Shown here piece by piece: positions 5,591 to 41,915 of a DNA stretch of 64,000 bases. The notes below the pieces were generated by a model that was given only the letters and a program-made list of their open reading frames with translations, was not told where the DNA came from and did no database searches. The translations under genes and the position numbers were made by a program. Within the stretch, counting starts at the first letter, position 1. Every line of letters begins with the position of its first letter. Source of the stretch: Escherichia phage HY03; sequence record NC_031047.1. One strand, given 5' to 3'.

Positions 5591-5605
5591 TCTTTGACGA
5601 TTTAA

Positions 5606-5621
5606 GGGACCTTCGGGTCCC
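5606..5621 (+). terminator. stem-loop GGGACC-UUCG-GGUCCC after gene 23
   Basis: Perfect GC stem with UUCG-type loop followed by a T-rich run. Confidence 0.7.
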
Positions 5622-5638
5622 TTTAGTTGTTTTTATGG

Positions 5639-5646
5639 TATAAATA
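5639..5646 (+). promoter_or_regulatory. late promoter TATAAATA upstream of gene 24
   Basis: Exact TATAAATA 28 nt upstream of the gp24 ATG. Confidence 0.65.
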
Positions 5647-5673
5647 AATCATATAAACCAAAAGGAAAGCGCA

Positions 5674-6957
5674 ATGGCTAAAATCAACGAACTTTTGCGC
5701 GAATCAACCACAACGAATAGCAACTCAATCGGTCGCCCAAATCTCGTTGCTTTGACTCGCGCTACCACTAAATTAATATATTCTGACATTGTAGCAACGC
5801 AAAGAACTAATCAACCTGTTGCTGCTTTTTACGGTATCAAATACCTTAACCCAGACAATGAATTTACATTTAAAACTGGTGCTACTTATGCTGGCGAAGC
5901 TGGATATGTAGACCGAGAACAAATCACAGAATTAACAGAAGAGTCTAAATTAACTCTCAATAAGGGCGATTTATTCAAATATAATAATATCGTTTATAAA
6001 GTATTAGAAGATACACCATTTGCTGATATTGAAGAAAGCGATTTAGAATTAGCTCTTCAGATTGCAATTGTTCTTTTAAAGGTTCGTCTATTTTCTGACG
6101 CAGCGTCAACAAGCAAATTTGAAAGCTCTGATAGTGAAATTGCGGATGCTAGATTCCAGATTAATAAATGGCAAACCGCAGTTAAATCTCGTAAACTTAA
6201 AACTGGTATCACAGTTGAATTAGCACAAGATTTAGAAGCAAATGGATTCGATGCTCCTAATTTCCTGGAAGATTTGCTTGCAACTGAAATGGCGGATGAA
6301 ATCAATAAAGATATTTTACAGTCTTTGATTACAGTATCAAAACGCTATAAAGTTACAGGAATTACTGATACTGGATTCATTGATTTGAGCTATGCATCTG
6401 CACCTGAAGCTGGTCGTTCATTATACCGAATGGTATGTGAAATGGTTTCACATATCCAAAAAGAATCAACTTATACAGCAACGTTCTGTGTTGCTTCAGC
6501 TCGTGCCGCTGCGATTCTTGCTGCATCAGGTTGGTTAAAACATAAACCAGAAGATGATAAATATCTTTCACAAAATGCCTACGGGTTCTTAGCTAATGGT
6601 TTACCGCTTTATTGCGATACTAACAGCCCATTAGATTATGTAATCGTTGGTGTAGTAGAAAATATCGGCGAAAAAGAAATTGTTGGATCAATTTTCTATG
6701 CTCCGTATACAGAAGGTCTTGACTTAGATGACCCTGAACATGTAGGTGCATTTAAAGTTGTAGTTGACCCAGAAAGTTTGCAGCCATCTATCGGTTTATT
6801 AGTTAGATATGCTTTATCAGCAAATCCTTACACTGTAGCAAAAGATGAAAAAGAAGCAAGAATAATTGATGGTGGAGACATGGATAAAATGGCGGGTCGT
6901 TCAGATTTGTCTGTTTTATTAGGTGTTAAGCTACCAAAAATTATCGTTGATGAATAA
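5674..6957 (+). CDS. 24: capsid vertex protein gp24
   Basis: 427-aa gp23 paralog in conserved position. Confidence 0.95.
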   Translation: MAKINELLRESTTTNSNSIGRPNLVALTRATTKLIYSDIVATQRTNQPVAAFYGIKYLNPDNEFTFKTGATYAGEAGYVDREQITELTEESKLTLNKGDLFKYNNIVYKVLEDTPFADIEESDLELALQIAIVLLKVRLFSDAASTSKFESSDSEIADARFQINKWQTAVKSRKLKTGITVELAQDLEANGFDAPNFLEDLLATEMADEINKDILQSLITVSKRYKVTGITDTGFIDLSYASAPEAGRSLYRMVCEMVSHIQKESTYTATFCVASARAAAILAASGWLKHKPEDDKYLSQNAYGFLANGLPLYCDTNSPLDYVIVGVVENIGEKEIVGSIFYAPYTEGLDLDDPEHVGAFKVVVDPESLQPSIGLLVRYALSANPYTVAKDEKEARIIDGGDMDKMAGRSDLSVLLGVKLPKIIVDE

Positions 6958-6963
6958 AACAAA

Positions 6964-6979
6964 GGGACCTTTCGGTCCC
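6964..6979. terminator. bidirectional stem-loop GGGACC-UUUC-GGUCCC between convergent gene 24 and rnlB
   Basis: Perfect 6-bp GC stem flanked by A-run and T-run. Confidence 0.7.
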
Positions 6980-6986
6980 TTTTTAT

Positions 6987-7990
6987 TTAACTTACCAATT
7001 CAATCCAAGCCGGACGAAGTACATCTTGTACCATTTTAACTAATTCCTTTTTAACCAAAGAAGGATTATCTGCTTGAGTTAGAGTAATACCTTCACGAGA
7101 AGTTTCTTCCAAAATATCTTGAACAGTTAGTCCCATCACCTTTCCAAAATCCTTCGAACCAATTTCACCAATTTTAGAAATAACGTTATTTACTCGGTTC
7201 AGTGTAACGTAGCAAGCTAAAATTCCCACCAATTTGTTATCAGCTTCTGATAGTTCAACTTTAGCTTTAATAGGCTTATCAGACTTTTTCTTTTCACTAA
7301 ATTTGGAATTCTTGCATTTGATGGCTACACGATTTCCATTATGAAGCCAAGAAGGATAACAAGGTTTCAATACATATCCTTCAGCGGTAAATACTTCGCC
7401 TTTGGCTTCAGCTTTCCAAACACATTTGTTAGCGTCAACTAATCCAGCATGGTCTACCGTAAAATTATAATCCTGTACGACAGAATCTAAATCATTTGGC
7501 AATTTAATAAGTTCTTCAAATTTACCACGACCTAAAAGTGGAGCCATTTTAAATTTAAATGTATTACAGAATGATTCCATCATATAATCATCGACATAAG
7601 TCACATCACCACTTTCTGTAGTGACAATAATGTCAAATACATAAAAATCTTTACGCCATAATCGACATTCTTCTGAATGCCAGGTCCAGCGAATTCGCCA
7701 AAGACTTGATAAGATACAACCGCTGAGGTTTCCATAATATCTTGTACTGCTTTAATAGAATCTTCGTAATTCTTTAGAATAATTTCATACCCAAAGAAAT
7801 CTTCAGCAGGAAGAATCGGTCCAGTACGTTTAGCGCAAGTTACTTTATCACGCTCAATAATCAATGAGAAATTTGTGCCGTGAATCTTTTCACGAGCTAC
7901 CCACTCCCCACCAGTCAATCCCAAGCTATAAAGTTTTTCAATAAATTTAGAGTTGTAATGATTTTCAAGACTGCTATACTTTTTAAACAT
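6987..7990 (-). pseudogene. rnlB: RNA ligase 2 (Rnl2) split into two ORFs by a frameshift near 7653-7657
   Basis: N-terminal ORF 7601..7990 carries ligase motif I (REKIHGTN, Lys35); C-terminal ORF 6987..7604 continues in another frame starting at GTG; the switch maps to the GGCGT segment. Confidence 0.6.
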
Positions 7991-7999
7991 AATTAATCC

Positions 8000-8278
8000 T
8001 CAAAATGTAATTTCTAACCAATCACCATCACGCTGATCACTATTGACTTTAAAGCTGAATCCTTCTTTTCTCAGCCAATCACCAATTTCTTCAGTAATCA
8101 ATTTATCACGAGCAATACAATAATAACTAAAATGTGTTTTACCTTGTTCAGCTGCTTTATTAGCAAGTTCCGAAAAATCTTTAATAAAACACTCTAGCTT
8201 AAACTGTTTACTTTTAAGTGCTTTTTCGCGCAATTGATTAGCAAAAGATTCATTTTCATAAAGATCATACTGTTCCAT
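8000..8278 (-). CDS. hypothetical protein (24.2-like position)
   Basis: 92-aa ORF between rnlB and hoc. Confidence 0.6.
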   Translation of the reverse strand: MEQYDLYENESFANQLREKALKSKQFKLECFIKDFSELANKAAEQGKTHFSYYCIARDKLITEEIGDWLRKEGFSFKVNSDQRDGDWLEITF

Positions 8279-8480
8279 TTTTCACCTTTTTATTGATATG
8301 TCTTTTTCTATAGACGACTTTTTCTCGAGTTTCAAATTTATTTTTAGCAGTCATAGCTCGAGCCCATAATACAGCCACTTCTTTTGCCTGTAAGTTTAAT
8401 TCACGAGCAATTTCAATGAATGACTTTCCAGACTCATGAAGAGTAAACACCACAACCTCAGTTCTCATAATCAATCTCAT
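8265..8480 (-). CDS. hypothetical small protein with helix-turn-helix-like segment (24.3-like position)
   Basis: 71-aa ORF; segment SFIEIARELNLQAKEVAVLWARA resembles an HTH. Confidence 0.5.
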   Translation of the reverse strand: MRLIMRTEVVVFTLHESGKSFIEIARELNLQAKEVAVLWARAMTAKNKFETREKVVYRKRHINKKVKNGTV

Positions 8481-8575: not shown

Positions 8576-9706
8576 TTATGGATAGGTATAGATGATACCA
8601 GTTTCTAAAGCAGTTTTATGAATGATGTATCCATTACGCGATTCTTGAACATCAACTTCTGGATATTCTTTCATCATCTTCTGAAGAGTGTAACGATGTA
8701 GGTAATATTTACTATCTGGGTCGTCAGTTTTCCAATCTTTACCTTCTTCGGTCATTTTTTGGATTTCATCCATAACCCACCAACCGCACCAGATATAAGC
8801 TGAAGTACGATGTGGAAGAGGATGAACATAAGGTAGTTCACCTTCTGGTTCTGGAGCAACTTTATCAGTTACCTGAACTTGACCTTCTGCTGTAATAGTT
8901 TTGCTATCGTAATCAGTTGCAGTAACGACAGCAGTAACTTCAATAGTTTGACTTCCAACAGATGAGGTATCGACAGTATATACGTTAGTTGACCCTTCTA
9001 CAGGAGAAGAATCTTTCTTCCATGAGTAAGTAATTTGTGCTTCTTCTGGAGCACCCGTAACATTAGCCGTAAATGTAGCCGAAGCATCTTGCTGAACATT
9101 AATAGAAGGAGGAGTCAATGTAACCTGTGGATTCATTGTCTTCTTATTAACTGTCAATGATACTTCATTAGAAGTAACTTCCTTTTCATTGTAATTTTCA
9201 GCAGTTACTTGGGCTACGCATTTAATTCTTTTTACTCCACTTGTAGTTGGAGTATAGCTAAATGTAGAGTTAGTTTCTCCACCAACTTGTGAATCATCTA
9301 CATACCACTGATACGTAGCCGATGCGCCTGGTGGCTGCGAATCTAAGGCAGCAGTAAATTGAACAGCTGTTCCAATTACTCCAGCGTCAGGGCTATTAGG
9401 AGTTACAGCTAAGGTGGTCGTTTGTGTCTTATTTTGAACTGTGATAGTTGTAGTAGCTTCTGCTGTTTCAGCATCAGTATCTGGAACTGTATTTGTTGCA
9501 ACTACTTTAATAGTCTTTTGTCCAGCAGGTCCTTTTAATACATAATCAAAAGTTGCTTCAGCTCCATCTTGTGGAGCATCATCTACAGTCCAAGCATATG
9601 TAATAGTTCCGCCTCCAGTTTCACCACTGGGTGTAGCAGTAAACTGCTTAGTTTCATCAATAACCCCTGTCGGTGTTTTAGGAGTTATATCAACTGTAAA
9701 AGTCAT
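8576..9706 (-). CDS. hoc: Hoc, outer capsid protein with Ig-like domains
   Basis: 376-aa Thr/Val-rich repetitive protein in conserved position. Confidence 0.9.
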   Translation of the reverse strand: MTFTVDITPKTPTGVIDETKQFTATPSGETGGGTITYAWTVDDAPQDGAEATFDYVLKGPAGQKTIKVVATNTVPDTDAETAEATTTITVQNKTQTTTLAVTPNSPDAGVIGTAVQFTAALDSQPPGASATYQWYVDDSQVGGETNSTFSYTPTTSGVKRIKCVAQVTAENYNEKEVTSNEVSLTVNKKTMNPQVTLTPPSINVQQDASATFTANVTGAPEEAQITYSWKKDSSPVEGSTNVYTVDTSSVGSQTIEVTAVVTATDYDSKTITAEGQVQVTDKVAPEPEGELPYVHPLPHRTSAYIWCGWWVMDEIQKMTEEGKDWKTDDPDSKYYLHRYTLQKMMKEYPEVDVQESRNGYIIHKTALETGIIYTYP

Positions 9707-19827: not shown

Positions 19828-20922
19828 ATGGCAATTGTTAAAGAAATAACTGCTGATTTAATTAAAAAGTCTGGCGAGACAATTTCAGCTGGACAGAGTA
19901 CTAAATCAGAAGTAGGAACTAAAACATACACAGCCCAGTTTCCAACTGGGCGTGCTAGTGGGAATGACACTACAGGGGACTTCCAGGTAACAGATCTATA
20001 TAAGAATGGATTATTATTTACTGCATACAATATGTCATCTAGGGATTCTGGAAGTCTCAGAACGATGAGATCTAACTACTCTTCTTCATCTTCTAGTATT
20101 TTACGTACAGCCAGAAACACTATCAGTAATACAGTATCAAAACTGTCAAATGGATTAATATCAGATAATAATTCAGGAACAATAAGTAAAGCCCCTGTTG
20201 CAAATATTCTTTTACCAAGATCTAAATCTGATGTTGATACATCATCACATAGATTTAATGATGTTCAAGAAAGTCTTATCAGCAGAGGCGGAGGTACTGC
20301 TACTGGTGTGCTAAGTAATATTGCTTCAACTGCAGTATTTGGGGCACTGGAAAGTATAACACAAGGTATAATGGCTGATAATAATGAGCAGATTTATACT
20401 ACAGCCAGAAGTATGTATGGTGGTGCTGAGAATAGAACTAAAGTGTTTACATGGGATTTGACTCCACGTTCAACAGAAGATTTAATGGCTATTATTAATA
20501 TCTATCAGTATTTTAACTATTTTTCTTATGGTGAAACGGGCAAATCTCAATATGCTGCTGAAATAAAGGGGTATTTAGATGATTGGTATCGTTCTACGTT
20601 AATTGAACCTTTATCTCCGGAAGACGCAGCTAAAAATAAAACACTATTTGAGAAAATGACATCGAGTTTAACTAACGTTTTAGTAGTTTCAAACCCGACA
20701 ATTTGGATGGTGAAAAACTTTGGTGCAACATCTAAGTTTGATGGAAAAACTGAAATATTTGGTCCATGCCAAATACAGAGCATCAGATTTGATAAAACAC
20801 CTAATGGTAACTTTAACGGATTAGCTATTGCTCCAAACCTCCCTAGTACATTTACTCTTGAGATTACTATGAGAGAAATTATCACGTTAAACCGTGCTTC
20901 TTTATATGCGGGGACTTTTTAA
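19828..20922 (+). CDS. 48: baseplate tail-tube junction protein gp48
   Basis: 364-aa ORF in conserved position. Confidence 0.9.
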   Translation: MAIVKEITADLIKKSGETISAGQSTKSEVGTKTYTAQFPTGRASGNDTTGDFQVTDLYKNGLLFTAYNMSSRDSGSLRTMRSNYSSSSSSILRTARNTISNTVSKLSNGLISDNNSGTISKAPVANILLPRSKSDVDTSSHRFNDVQESLISRGGGTATGVLSNIASTAVFGALESITQGIMADNNEQIYTTARSMYGGAENRTKVFTWDLTPRSTEDLMAIINIYQYFNYFSYGETGKSQYAAEIKGYLDDWYRSTLIEPLSPEDAAKNKTLFEKMTSSLTNVLVVSNPTIWMVKNFGATSKFDGKTEIFGPCQIQSIRFDKTPNGNFNGLAIAPNLPSTFTLEITMREIITLNRASLYAGTF

Positions 20923-21845
20923 TGTATTCTTTAGAGGAATTTAATAATCAAGCAATAAACGCAGATTTCCAACGTAATAATATGTTTAGCTGCGTTTTTG
21001 CGACAACTCCATCAACTAAAAGCTCTTCGTTGATAAGTTCAATTAGCAACTTTTCTTATAATAACTTGGGCTTAAATTCAGATTGGTTAGGATTGACTCA
21101 AGACGATATTAATCAGGGAATTACTACGCTAATTACTGCTGGCACACAAAAACTGATAAGAAAATCAGGGGTTAGTAAATATCTTATTGGTGCCATGAGT
21201 CAACGTACAGTTCAAAGCTTATTAGGCTCATTTACAGTTGGTACATATTTAATTGACTTCTTTAACATGGCATATAACTCATCTGGATTGATGATATACT
21301 CCGTAAAAATGCCAGAGAATAGATTATCCTATGAAACTGACTGGAACTATAATTCTCCTAATATTCGCATAACCGGAAGAGAATTAGACCCTTTGGTTAT
21401 TTCATTTAGAATGGATTCAGAAGCTTGTAACTATCGTGCAATGCAAGACTGGGTTAACTCCGTTCAAGACCCAGTAACTGGATTACGCGCTTTGCCGCAA
21501 GATGTCGAGGCAGATATTCAGGTTAATCTTCATTCTCGCAATGGATTGCCTCATACTGCGGTGATGTTCACCGGATGCATTCCAATATCAGTGAGCGCTC
21601 CTGAGTTATCATATGATGGAGATAACCAAATAACTACATTTGATGTTACTTTTGCGTATAGAGTGATGCAGGCTGGAGCGGTTGATAGGCAAGCTGCGCT
21701 TGAATGGCTTGAATCTGCTGCTATAAATGGTATTCAAAGCGTTCTCGGAAATAGTGGAGGTGTTACTGGACTATCTAATTCGCTTTCACGACTTAGTAGA
21801 CTAGGAGGAACCTCAGGAAGCATTTCAAATATTAGTATACTATGA
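20922..21845 (+). CDS. 54: baseplate tail-tube initiator gp54
   Basis: 307-aa ORF in conserved position after gp48. Confidence 0.9.
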   Translation: MYSLEEFNNQAINADFQRNNMFSCVFATTPSTKSSSLISSISNFSYNNLGLNSDWLGLTQDDINQGITTLITAGTQKLIRKSGVSKYLIGAMSQRTVQSLLGSFTVGTYLIDFFNMAYNSSGLMIYSVKMPENRLSYETDWNYNSPNIRITGRELDPLVISFRMDSEACNYRAMQDWVNSVQDPVTGLRALPQDVEADIQVNLHSRNGLPHTAVMFTGCIPISVSAPELSYDGDNQITTFDVTFAYRVMQAGAVDRQAALEWLESAAINGIQSVLGNSGGVTGLSNSLSRLSRLGGTSGSISNISIL

Positions 21846-22636: not shown

Positions 22637-23281
22637 TTATCCTTGAACGAACTTGTAAGGCATGTTTGCAATATCTATGCAAGACGCAATAATTCCAAGA
22701 GATGATTCTACTTTCTGTTTAACATTTGATGAAACAAATGATGCAAAGTCAACTCTGTCTTCTATTTCAATATCACCTGTCATTGCAACTACTTCACCAG
22801 TTTCCATTAGACGGTCACCGTCATAAATTACTGATTCGGTGAGTTCTTCCGTAGTCATAACTTCAGCTTGAATGAGTTTTGTATTATTAAATGTTGTTCC
22901 GTCATTATTAGAAGCATCAGTTATTTTATTAACTTTGACCATCAATCCACGTGGTAGAATAACTTCAGCTTCTGTTGCTATTCCGAGACTTCCTGGATAT
23001 ACAACATTAACTTTATGAGCTCCATCAATTGCCCATCCTATTTGAACTTTAACGTATTCAGGATTTTCTTTATACGCTCTTATTTCGTTTGGATTAATAG
23101 TTATTCCTTCTTCATTTTTATCAACTGTCAATTCATTACGAGCTTCTGGTTCTAAAAGACCGATACCAGCATGTGTAATTCCAAAACGTCCAAAAATGAT
23201 AGGAGTTAAAGAAGTAGATACAAAATTTCTGAAATAGAACACTTTATTTTTAACTAATGCTTCGTATATAGGAGCAGTCAA
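22637..23281 (-). CDS. hypothetical protein, possibly a 5'-truncated gene remnant at the synteny breakpoint
   Basis: 214-aa ORF whose only start is TTG without RBS; in-frame stop 6 codons upstream; abuts the divergent 116-aa gene. Confidence 0.45.
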   Translation of the reverse strand: MTAPIYEALVKNKVFYFRNFVSTSLTPIIFGRFGITHAGIGLLEPEARNELTVDKNEEGITINPNEIRAYKENPEYVKVQIGWAIDGAHKVNVVYPGSLGIATEAEVILPRGLMVKVNKITDASNNDGTTFNNTKLIQAEVMTTEELTESVIYDGDRLMETGEVVAMTGDIEIEDRVDFASFVSSNVKQKVESSLGIIASCIDIANMPYKFVQG

Positions 23282-23282
23282 T

Positions 23283-23633
23283 ATGAAAGGTAATGTTTAT
23301 TTAGTAGTTCATGATTTAACATTCTATTTTAATCATAATGATACTGTTATTTCTGAACGTGTAATTAATTTGCTTTATCAGCATGCAGATTATGTTTATG
23401 TCGAAAACGAATATGGTCATTGGCAATTTCTCAAAAATCGTTCATTTGGTTTAGATGGTTACGAATATTTTGATCGTAAAGACCTTTTAGATACAATTCC
23501 GTTATCTACACAATATCAAAATCATAAGTCTTTACATAAATGCCGGCTAATTCGAAATGCTGAATCCGCGTATGAAGCAATTGATTTATGGCGTAAACGC
23601 CGTGAACAGATTGATGCTTTAAAAGAATATTAA
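23283..23633 (+). CDS. hypothetical protein
   Basis: 116-aa ORF with AGGAG RBS, immediately upstream of the structured RNA locus. Confidence 0.65.
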   Translation: MKGNVYLVVHDLTFYFNHNDTVISERVINLLYQHADYVYVENEYGHWQFLKNRSFGLDGYEYFDRKDLLDTIPLSTQYQNHKSLHKCRLIRNAESAYEAIDLWRKRREQIDALKEY

Positions 23634-26980: not shown

Positions 26981-27324
26981 ATAAAGTCAAATATTCGCTT
27001 CCTGAGTCATTTTTAATTTTTGCTGTGGCGTTGGCTGCAGCTCTTGCAGGTAGTATTTTTGGATTGTTAATTGACTGTCTTATTTTAAACATCGACGACA
27101 CAGTAAATATAACAGAAGTTTGGAGTGAGCTTTGTTATACTAAAATTATTTCATTGTTTTCATTCTTTGGTACAATGTTATATTTTCATTATGATAATTT
27201 TAAAATAAATTGGCAAAGAAAAAAGGATTACAAAATACAATTAAAAGAATATAACAACTACGTGTCTTATATTGAAAAAGAATCAATGGAAGAGTTTGTG
27301 AGTGATTGTAGGAAAATCAAATGA
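26962..27324 (+). CDS. small membrane protein, paralog family
   Basis: 120 aa; TM segments; C-terminus EEFVSDCRKIK. Confidence 0.65.
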   Translation: MQKPKLNKVKYSLPESFLIFAVALAAALAGSIFGLLIDCLILNIDDTVNITEVWSELCYTKIISLFSFFGTMLYFHYDNFKINWQRKKDYKIQLKEYNNYVSYIEKESMEEFVSDCRKIK

Positions 27325-27809
27325 TTTTAAAAACTCGCTGGTATGATTTAGATGATGGGGATGATGGCATTTCAGTTGATAGAGTTGATTGGAATGGTTG
27401 TTCCGAAGATACAAAGAAACGATTAATTAGGGAGTTTAGAATGGGATATCAAGCAGCTAAACCATTTACTGTAACAGATGATAAATTCGTGTGTATTCAA
27501 AATGGTCGCGCTAAGTTAACGAATGCCGATTGGTTCACAGATAAGAAGGTTATTCTGTGGTATATCATTAGTCTTCCTATATCATCGTTCGTATTTTACT
27601 TTTTTATAAAAAATCCAATGGACAGAATAGGAGATTGGGTTCTTTTAACTATACTTGTTAATATTTTTACAGCAGCAGTATTATCAGGAATATGGCGTAT
27701 GTTCATTGAAATGCCATGGCGTTTACGCAGACAGCAAAAGATTTTTGATGAAAAGAAATATGCTCAAAATTTAAATAACTTTATCACTGAATGCAGGAAA
27801 TTAAAATGA
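27321..27809 (+). CDS. small membrane protein, paralog family
   Basis: 162 aa; TM segments; C-terminus NNFITECRKLK; ATGA overlap with previous gene. Confidence 0.65.
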   Translation: MILKTRWYDLDDGDDGISVDRVDWNGCSEDTKKRLIREFRMGYQAAKPFTVTDDKFVCIQNGRAKLTNADWFTDKKVILWYIISLPISSFVFYFFIKNPMDRIGDWVLLTILVNIFTAAVLSGIWRMFIEMPWRLRRQQKIFDEKKYAQNLNNFITECRKLK

Positions 27810-40891: not shown

Positions 40892-41915
40892 ATGAAAACT
40901 CGTTCTCAAATTGAAGATATGGTTCGTAATGCCAGTTATACTCGTGATGTTATGACATTTTTGTGTGAAAATAATTTAGACCCTGATAAAGTTAATCGTG
41001 TTATTTATCACTTTAAGTATACGAATAGCAGTGAATGGTTACGTCATTTTAGTAAAGCGGGGTATATTACACAAATGACTGCTCGTGAACAGCTCACCGA
41101 TTTCTGTAAAACTATTGATTATAAAAATCCTCTATTTGTTCGAGGCGTTGGTCAAAGTAAGACTGATCTATCAACTGGATTTTTTTAATCCAAATCATTA
41201 TCGTCTTGAATGGAGATTTATTGCTTTATTCCGTAAACAATTAAAGCAAATTTTGTCTACTGCTAGTCGATTAAAAGGCTCTGATATTAACTTAAAGAAT
41301 CTGAAATTTGATGGTTATACTCTTCAGATGGAAGTAAGACCGTTAAAAGAAAATAATAGAACTGCACGAATTAGCTTTAAACCTAATACAAAAAATTCTC
41401 TTTCAATTTGCGAATGCCTTAAATCGCAGTTGACAGAAGCATTTAAGTATATGGATGTTGTTGCTGCTGTTCAATCTAAGATTTTACCTCGTTTTGAGCG
41501 AAATTGGGAACATACAACAACATATGAACTTGATATGATCGTTTCATTTAAATATGAATTTTTGAGAAAGGATGAAATTGTTCAAGAGAAAAAGCAGGAA
41601 GTGCAAGATACCTTAAATTCATCTAATTACTCATCAAACGATCCTAAATTTTGGATGTATAGCTCAAGCAATATAGATGCATGTAAACTTAATAAAGTGA
41701 GTTTTCTTCCTACTGAAAATTCAAATTTTAAACCTGTTGAAAAATGGCACGCGGATGCGATTGAGAAGTCTATCAAGGCAGTAGATGATGAACTCGTTAA
41801 AGCAACTAATGAAGTGTTAGAAGCTGAAAAGATGCTAGAAAAAGCTCAAGAAAAAGTCAAAAATCTCACGAAGCAACGTTCTAAACTGAACAATGCACTA
41901 AATGCACTAAACTAG
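40892..41915 (+). pseudogene. hypothetical gene interrupted by a frameshift at a T7 homopolymer (41180-41186)
   Basis: ORF 40892..41188 and overlapping ORF 41085..41915 are in adjacent frames; deleting one T fuses them into one reading frame of about 337 aa; downstream frame has no ATG until 41328. Confidence 0.5.

Follow-up and report, generated by a model that had tools for sequence, protein, structure and literature searches.

The gene for RNA ligase 2 (Rnl2), rnlB (T4 gp24.1), was split between two reading frames at positions 6987-7990 on the minus strand of the window, the whole 64,000-nt stretch of DNA that was analysed. The split was traced to the loss of one nucleotide at an exactly defined site of an otherwise 100% conserved gene and is no chance pattern. 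Shigella phage S2_01 has an intact rnlB of 1005 nt, and in the alignment with it the window gene, with 1004 nt, showed 0 mismatches and one gap. At gene position 338, GGCGATAAAG of S2_01 corresponded to GGCG-TAAAG in the window. The missing base was the A of codon 113 (GAT, Asp, reduced to G-T), between window positions G7654 and T7653, and was located outside any homopolymer. The intact 334-codon frame carries GGCGATAAAG, and the deletion allele reads GGCGTAAAG at the site, which gives GGC GTA AAG ATT in frame 0. The same position (7653..7654, minus strand) was obtained from alignments with S2_01 and with the phages vB_EcoM_DalCa and vB_EcoM_ACG-C40, as well as from a three-way alignment with S2_01 and T4. 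A preliminary description of this DNA had mapped the frame switch to the segment GGCGT at 7653-7657, ascribed it to a 1-nt deletion and proposed a nucleotide alignment as the check. Run against S2_01 and T4, this alignment upheld the proposal, with the single-base gap in codon 113. The event is of an ordinary type, being either a single-base frameshift in a seemingly dispensable, known phage gene or a one-base error in the consensus. Judged from the sequence, the odds between a real mutation and a consensus error appear to be near even.

The rnlB locus and its two reading frames

The window comes from a T4-like (Tequatrovirus) genome, and its positions 1-23,280 were colinear with T4, roughly from gene 21 to alt. 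Within a conserved block, rnlB was flanked by gene 24 (5674-6957, plus strand) and 24.2 (8000-8278, minus strand), with 24.3 (8265-8480, minus strand) and hoc (8576-9706, minus strand) beyond the latter. A terminator scan of both strands predicted a bidirectional intrinsic terminator hairpin at 6961-6982, where gene 24 and rnlB converge. The homologous hairpin in phage DalCa is annotated as a rho-independent terminator. rnlB was the final gene of its transcription unit, just before the terminator, and a premature stop would therefore have no polar effect downstream. The homing endonuclease gene segD, which fills ~790 nt of the interval from gene 23 to gene 24 in T4, was absent at window positions ~5,601-5,662, and the aligned blocks of genes 23 and 24 were only ~60 nt apart. 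Its absence is ordinary presence/absence variation of a mobile element. The RnlA-RnlB toxin-antitoxin system of E. coli is unrelated to the phage gene rnlB.

The two ORFs were exactly as they had been described, 7601..7990 with 129 aa and an ATG start and 6987..7604 with 205 aa and a GTG start. Their previous assignment to rnlB was borne out by the matches to PDB 2hvq, PF09414, PF18043 and TIGR02307. ORF 7601-7990 showed a clean match to T4 RNA ligase 2 (PDB 2hvq) over residues 1-112 (E 1.3e-72) and diverged thereafter, and ORF 6987-7604 matched residues 130-334 (E 8e-134). The NCBIfam model TIGR02307 for the Rnl2 family, comprising 326 positions, was matched from 1 to 118 in ORF 7601-7990 and from 133 to 326 in ORF 6987-7604. 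Taken across both ORFs, the 2hvq and TIGR02307 matches amounted to homology over the whole length of T4 Rnl2. Profile positions 2-81 of the 171 in PF09414 (RNA_ligase) were present in ORF 7601-7990, the match being cut at 81. PF18043 (T4_Rnl2_C, the Rnl2 C-terminal domain) was detected with 84 bits in ORF 6987-7604, apart from the catalytic N-terminus. TIGR02307 scored 166 bits in the N fragment, below its curated cut-off of 197.15 bits, 252 bits in the C fragment and 463 bits in the intact S2_01 protein. A single uninterrupted ORF of ~334 codons at the family cut-off was not present at the locus.

The 5' part of rnlB (7601..7990, minus strand) encodes Rnl2 residues 1-112 followed by 17 out-of-frame residues and stops at the TGA at 7603-7601. 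The 18 out-of-frame codons counted in the preliminary description are these 17 sense codons and the stop. The frame-0 product holds motifs I (K35, REKIHGTN), Ia (R55) and III (E99). The motif I pattern KxHGxN was found with EKIHGTN at residues 34-40 of this ORF, which verified the catalytic lysine K35 that had been placed there. The native sequence is picked up again at codon 114 (AAA, 7652-7650) in the -1 frame. This frame (6987..7751, minus strand) is open from ~7751 to the TAA stop at 6989-6987 and holds motifs IIIa (F119/D120), IV (E204) and V (K225/K227) and the C-terminal domain. None of these three motifs was on the polypeptide that carries K35, and all were confined to the -1 frame. 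In this frame, no start codon precedes the GTG at 7604-7602 (Val130), which shares bases with the upstream stop (GTGA) and opens the ORF 6987..7604 (minus strand, residues 130-334). This GTG "start" is simply the first start codon that an ORF finder meets, and the 205-aa fragment is putative.

Catalysis by Rnl2 requires the N-terminal domain, residues 1-243, together with K35, R55, E99, F119 and K225/K227 (PMC3149579). The catalytic residues of the window gene are divided between the frames and, going by this published structure-function work, neither ORF would therefore be an active ligase. Since the nucleotidyltransferase motifs are not all in one polypeptide, the locus as written reads as rnlB by descent, but as a disrupted copy of the Rnl2 family.

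Distribution of the allele and other indels in the window

The deletion was searched for in phage records with a 131-nt probe across the site and was present in 0 of the 469 matching records. The best 45 of these 469 matched with 99.2%, i.e. they were identical but for the extra base, and none matched with 100%. An exact 35-mer with the deletion had no match in IMG/VR, in the GTDB genome contigs, comprising one genome per species, or in the JGI metagenome contigs.

Disruptions of rnlB at other positions were detected in several relatives. The gene of ACG-C40 (L003, 1611-2615) carries W215* (TGG to TGA at codon 215) and that of DalCa (L002, 1611-2615) carries G283* (GGA to TGA at codon 283). 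The hoc gene of ACG-C40 is split too. The rnlB homologues from IMG/VR were single ORFs in 36 of 38 cases. Two of the 38 were frameshifted at other sites, L038 near codons 207-227 and L044 near codons 91-98. In GenBank, rnlB halves are annotated as separate adjacent CDSs ("RNA ligase 2" and "RNA ligase 3"). The positions and the mutation types differ, and each disruption of rnlB is therefore independent. Such recurrent independent disruption is consistent with dispensability of rnlB. In T4, it is Rnl1 (rnlA), working with polynucleotide kinase, that repairs the anticodon loop of tRNAs. The substrate of Rnl2 is nicked duplex RNA, which it seals, and the role of the enzyme in infection is unknown (PMC3884662). 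The preliminary description had left the choice between a true pseudogene and an error in the sequence, and both explanations are live. It had equated the pseudogene with a "loss of tRNA/RNA repair capacity", which was overstated, as tRNA repair is assigned to Rnl1 and the kinase.

Frameshifts in the 64 kb were identified with tblastn, with every ORF of 50 aa or more in the references S2_01, T4 and ELT1 as query. One further split gene was detected, the homologue of nrdC.5 (phrog_2351; 40,892-41,915, plus strand). It was represented by ORFs of 98 aa and 276 aa with a frame change at ~41,180, and its counterpart in ELT1 is one ORF of 339 aa. The split was caused by one additional T in a T run, with T7 in the window versus T6 in phage G28 and otherwise identical sequence over 150 nt. 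The T7 indel was a singleton in the phage collection. The gene nrdC.5 has no known function and is presumably non-essential in T4.

Two other window-specific indels were natural alleles common to phages SG1 and JEP6. Gene 54 (20,922-21,845, plus strand), encoding the essential baseplate/tail-tube initiator protein, showed a GT insertion at 21,835-21,836 compared with T4 and S2_01. Its product comprises 307 aa, ending in ...SISNISIL, versus 320 aa in T4. The GT allele was 100% identical in SG1, JEP6 and BYEP01/02, and close sequences were present in G8, F1 and FN. This makes it a natural gp54 variant with a short C-terminus and not an error. The second indel was located in an A run at 27,608 (ORF 27,321-27,809, plus strand), with A6 in the window versus A5. 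The additional A joins e.2 (309 nt in T4 and ELT1) and the next small ORF (ELT1_148, 192 nt) into an ORF of 162 aa. SG1, JEP6 and numerous other records had the A6 allele as well, and it is therefore a natural variant. As these indels are natural alleles, the assembly is not riddled with indel errors. A generally error-ridden assembly was rejected, since the tblastn scans and three-way indel censuses revealed only rnlB and the nrdC.5 homologue as split by singleton indels.

A break in synteny was located at 23,280/23,281 (context 22,637-23,633). Window positions 1-23,280 follow T4 from ~101 to 124 kb and end inside alt, which was represented by its C-terminal 214 aa only (ORF 22637-23281, minus strand). 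From 23,281 onwards, the order is inverted compared with T4 and comprises e.8 / e.x, nudE, e, tk, nrdC, nrdD, a-gt and further genes up to gene 43 (T4 ~70.7 kb down to ~27 kb). The junction joins the interior of alt in inverted orientation to the region beside e.8 and sits 2 nt ahead of the ATG of a phrog_3355 ORF. It was spanned by 0 of 424 matching phage records and is either a large inversion/rearrangement or an assembly mis-join.

Origin of the deletion and fate of the reading frame

A genuine and very recent loss-of-function mutation, in a gene that the phage can spare, stands about an even chance of being the correct explanation. It implies that the deletion is present in the phage DNA rather than in the consensus only, as we infer. 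The loss of one A in codon 113 would shift the frame, and ribosomes starting at the normal ATG would yield the 129-residue product. This product would keep the AMP-accepting K35 and motif III and would be devoid of motifs IIIa, IV and V and of the C-terminal domain, and could neither self-adenylylate nor seal RNA. The mutation was perhaps fixed in isolation or propagation of the phage. In 10.4 kb aligned with S2_01 at 99.54% identity, the gap in rnlB was the sole gap, and in the three-way comparison with S2_01 and T4 it was the only window-specific 1-nt deletion in positions 1-23,280. The position of the lost A outside a homopolymer counts for a real mutation, homopolymers being the usual context of indel errors. 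The window gene is 100% identical to the intact allele and shows no secondary decay, and the event would therefore be either extremely recent or unreal. The latter possibility, that the phage has an intact 1005-nt rnlB and that one base was dropped in sequence calling or polishing, falls a little short of an even chance. It is favoured by the deletion being a singleton in each collection searched and by the rest of the gene being base-for-base the same as the intact allele. The second singleton indel, T6 to T7 at 41,180, lies in a homopolymer, which is a typical context of sequencing errors. The unique junction at 23,280/23,281, which truncates alt, could be a mis-join of contigs. In nanopore data, the glucosyl-hydroxymethylcytosine of T-even DNA impairs base-calling in the vicinity of C and G, and the sequence just before the deleted A is GGCG. 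The singleton allele, the T7 indel and the unspanned junction, which lowers the trust in the assembly, count against a real mutation. However, a consensus error is at odds with the non-homopolymeric position of the A and with the 10.4 kb without a further indel, and the remaining ORFs shared with the references were all in frame. In addition, both singleton indels were located in genes not known to be essential. The window is rich in essential structural and replication genes, and random errors would not be expected to hit only genes outside this group.

Two further readings concern what might still be made from the deletion allele. The deletion creates GTA_AAG, which may permit a leaky -1 slip and thereby some full-length 334-aa Rnl2(D113V), an outcome that is improbable. 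The single tRNA-Lys of E. coli would slip from AAG to AAA and bring back the native frame at codon 114. The product would amount to a few percent of the normal level and might preserve some ligase function. The deletion would then be a down-tuning allele with a low level of Rnl2(D113V) and not a null allele, for which the chance is slim. No stop interrupts the -1 frame at the site, and translation with a slip simulated at AAG gave 334 aa with D113V as the sole change; the junction peptide would be NVDYGVKDFYVFD. Residue 113 is variable in homologues (D, E, A, K, P, H), and the conserved residues 114-120 (KDFYVFD) would be kept by the slip. Also in favour of slippage, A_AAG is a -1 shift-prone tetranucleotide in E. 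coli that was seen to offset a nearby frameshift mutation (PMC5009743), and single-bp deletions in E. coli showed 1-10% aggregate suppression by unprogrammed -1 slippage (PMC10861913). However, the tandem heptamer X_XXY_YYZ was absent. The sequence is C_GTA_AAG, in which only A_AAG can re-pair, the P-site codon GTA being unable to do so on CGT. The 20 nt upstream held no GGAGG- or AGGA-like element as a Shine-Dalgarno-like stimulator, and the downstream 84 nt folded no better than shuffles (z = -0.79). The split-frame arrangement was conserved in no relative (0 of the 469 phage records) and is therefore not an evolved recoding signal. Slippage would also be a side effect of a real deletion and not another origin for it. 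Programmed -1 recoding was rejected, with heptamer, stimulatory structure and conservation all lacking; slippage, if it occurs, would at best be incidental leakiness. It is extremely improbable that the 129-aa N-fragment and a 205-aa C-fragment re-initiated at the GTG form an active ligase. The overlap of stop and GTG (ATGTGA) resembles a translational-coupling junction, but residues 113-129, including motif IIIa (F119/D120), are in neither fragment, and F119 is the residue that stacks on the adenine of AMP (PMC3149579). A usable Shine-Dalgarno sequence at the right spacing was not found ahead of the GTG, and no relative was split at the codon-113 position among the 469 phage records and the IMG/VR homologues. 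With motif IIIa missing from both products, a split two-subunit enzyme is near excluded by sequence.

Significance and comparison with known systems

If the deletion is real, the phage would be a natural rnlB knockout and would contribute one more independent disrupted rnlB allele. It would support dispensability of Rnl2 in ordinary growth and could be used directly as a strain to study what Rnl2 does. A deletion that is an error would only call for one base to be put back into the record. Either way, one disrupted rnlB gene should be annotated and not two "RNA ligase" genes. Should slippage take place, a low level of RNA ligase 2 would be retained, and the locus would represent a natural indel with compensatory frameshifting in a T-even phage.

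The site differs from a programmed -1 signal in having neither heptamer nor stimulatory element nor conservation. It resembles corrective -1 frameshifting at A_AAG in E. coli, in that a Z_ZZN sequence is in frame right after the 1-nt deletion and the native frame lies at -1. As in ACG-C40, DalCa, L038 and L044, rnlB of the window was interrupted in an otherwise intact T4-like genome, but the deletion in codon 113 differs from these four in site or type. Among the closest known systems is T4 Rnl2 itself (gp24.1; PDB 2HVQ/1S68). The gene is in the same position as in T4, in the order gene 24, convergent terminator, rnlB, 24.2, 24.3 and hoc, and each half showed ~97-98% protein identity. As in T4, the locus encodes all nucleotidyltransferase motifs and the C-terminal domain. 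In contrast to the 1005-nt rnlB of T4, the window gene comprises 1004 nt, with the A missing from codon 113, and its K35 and E99 are encoded in one frame and F119/D120, E204 and K225/K227 in another.
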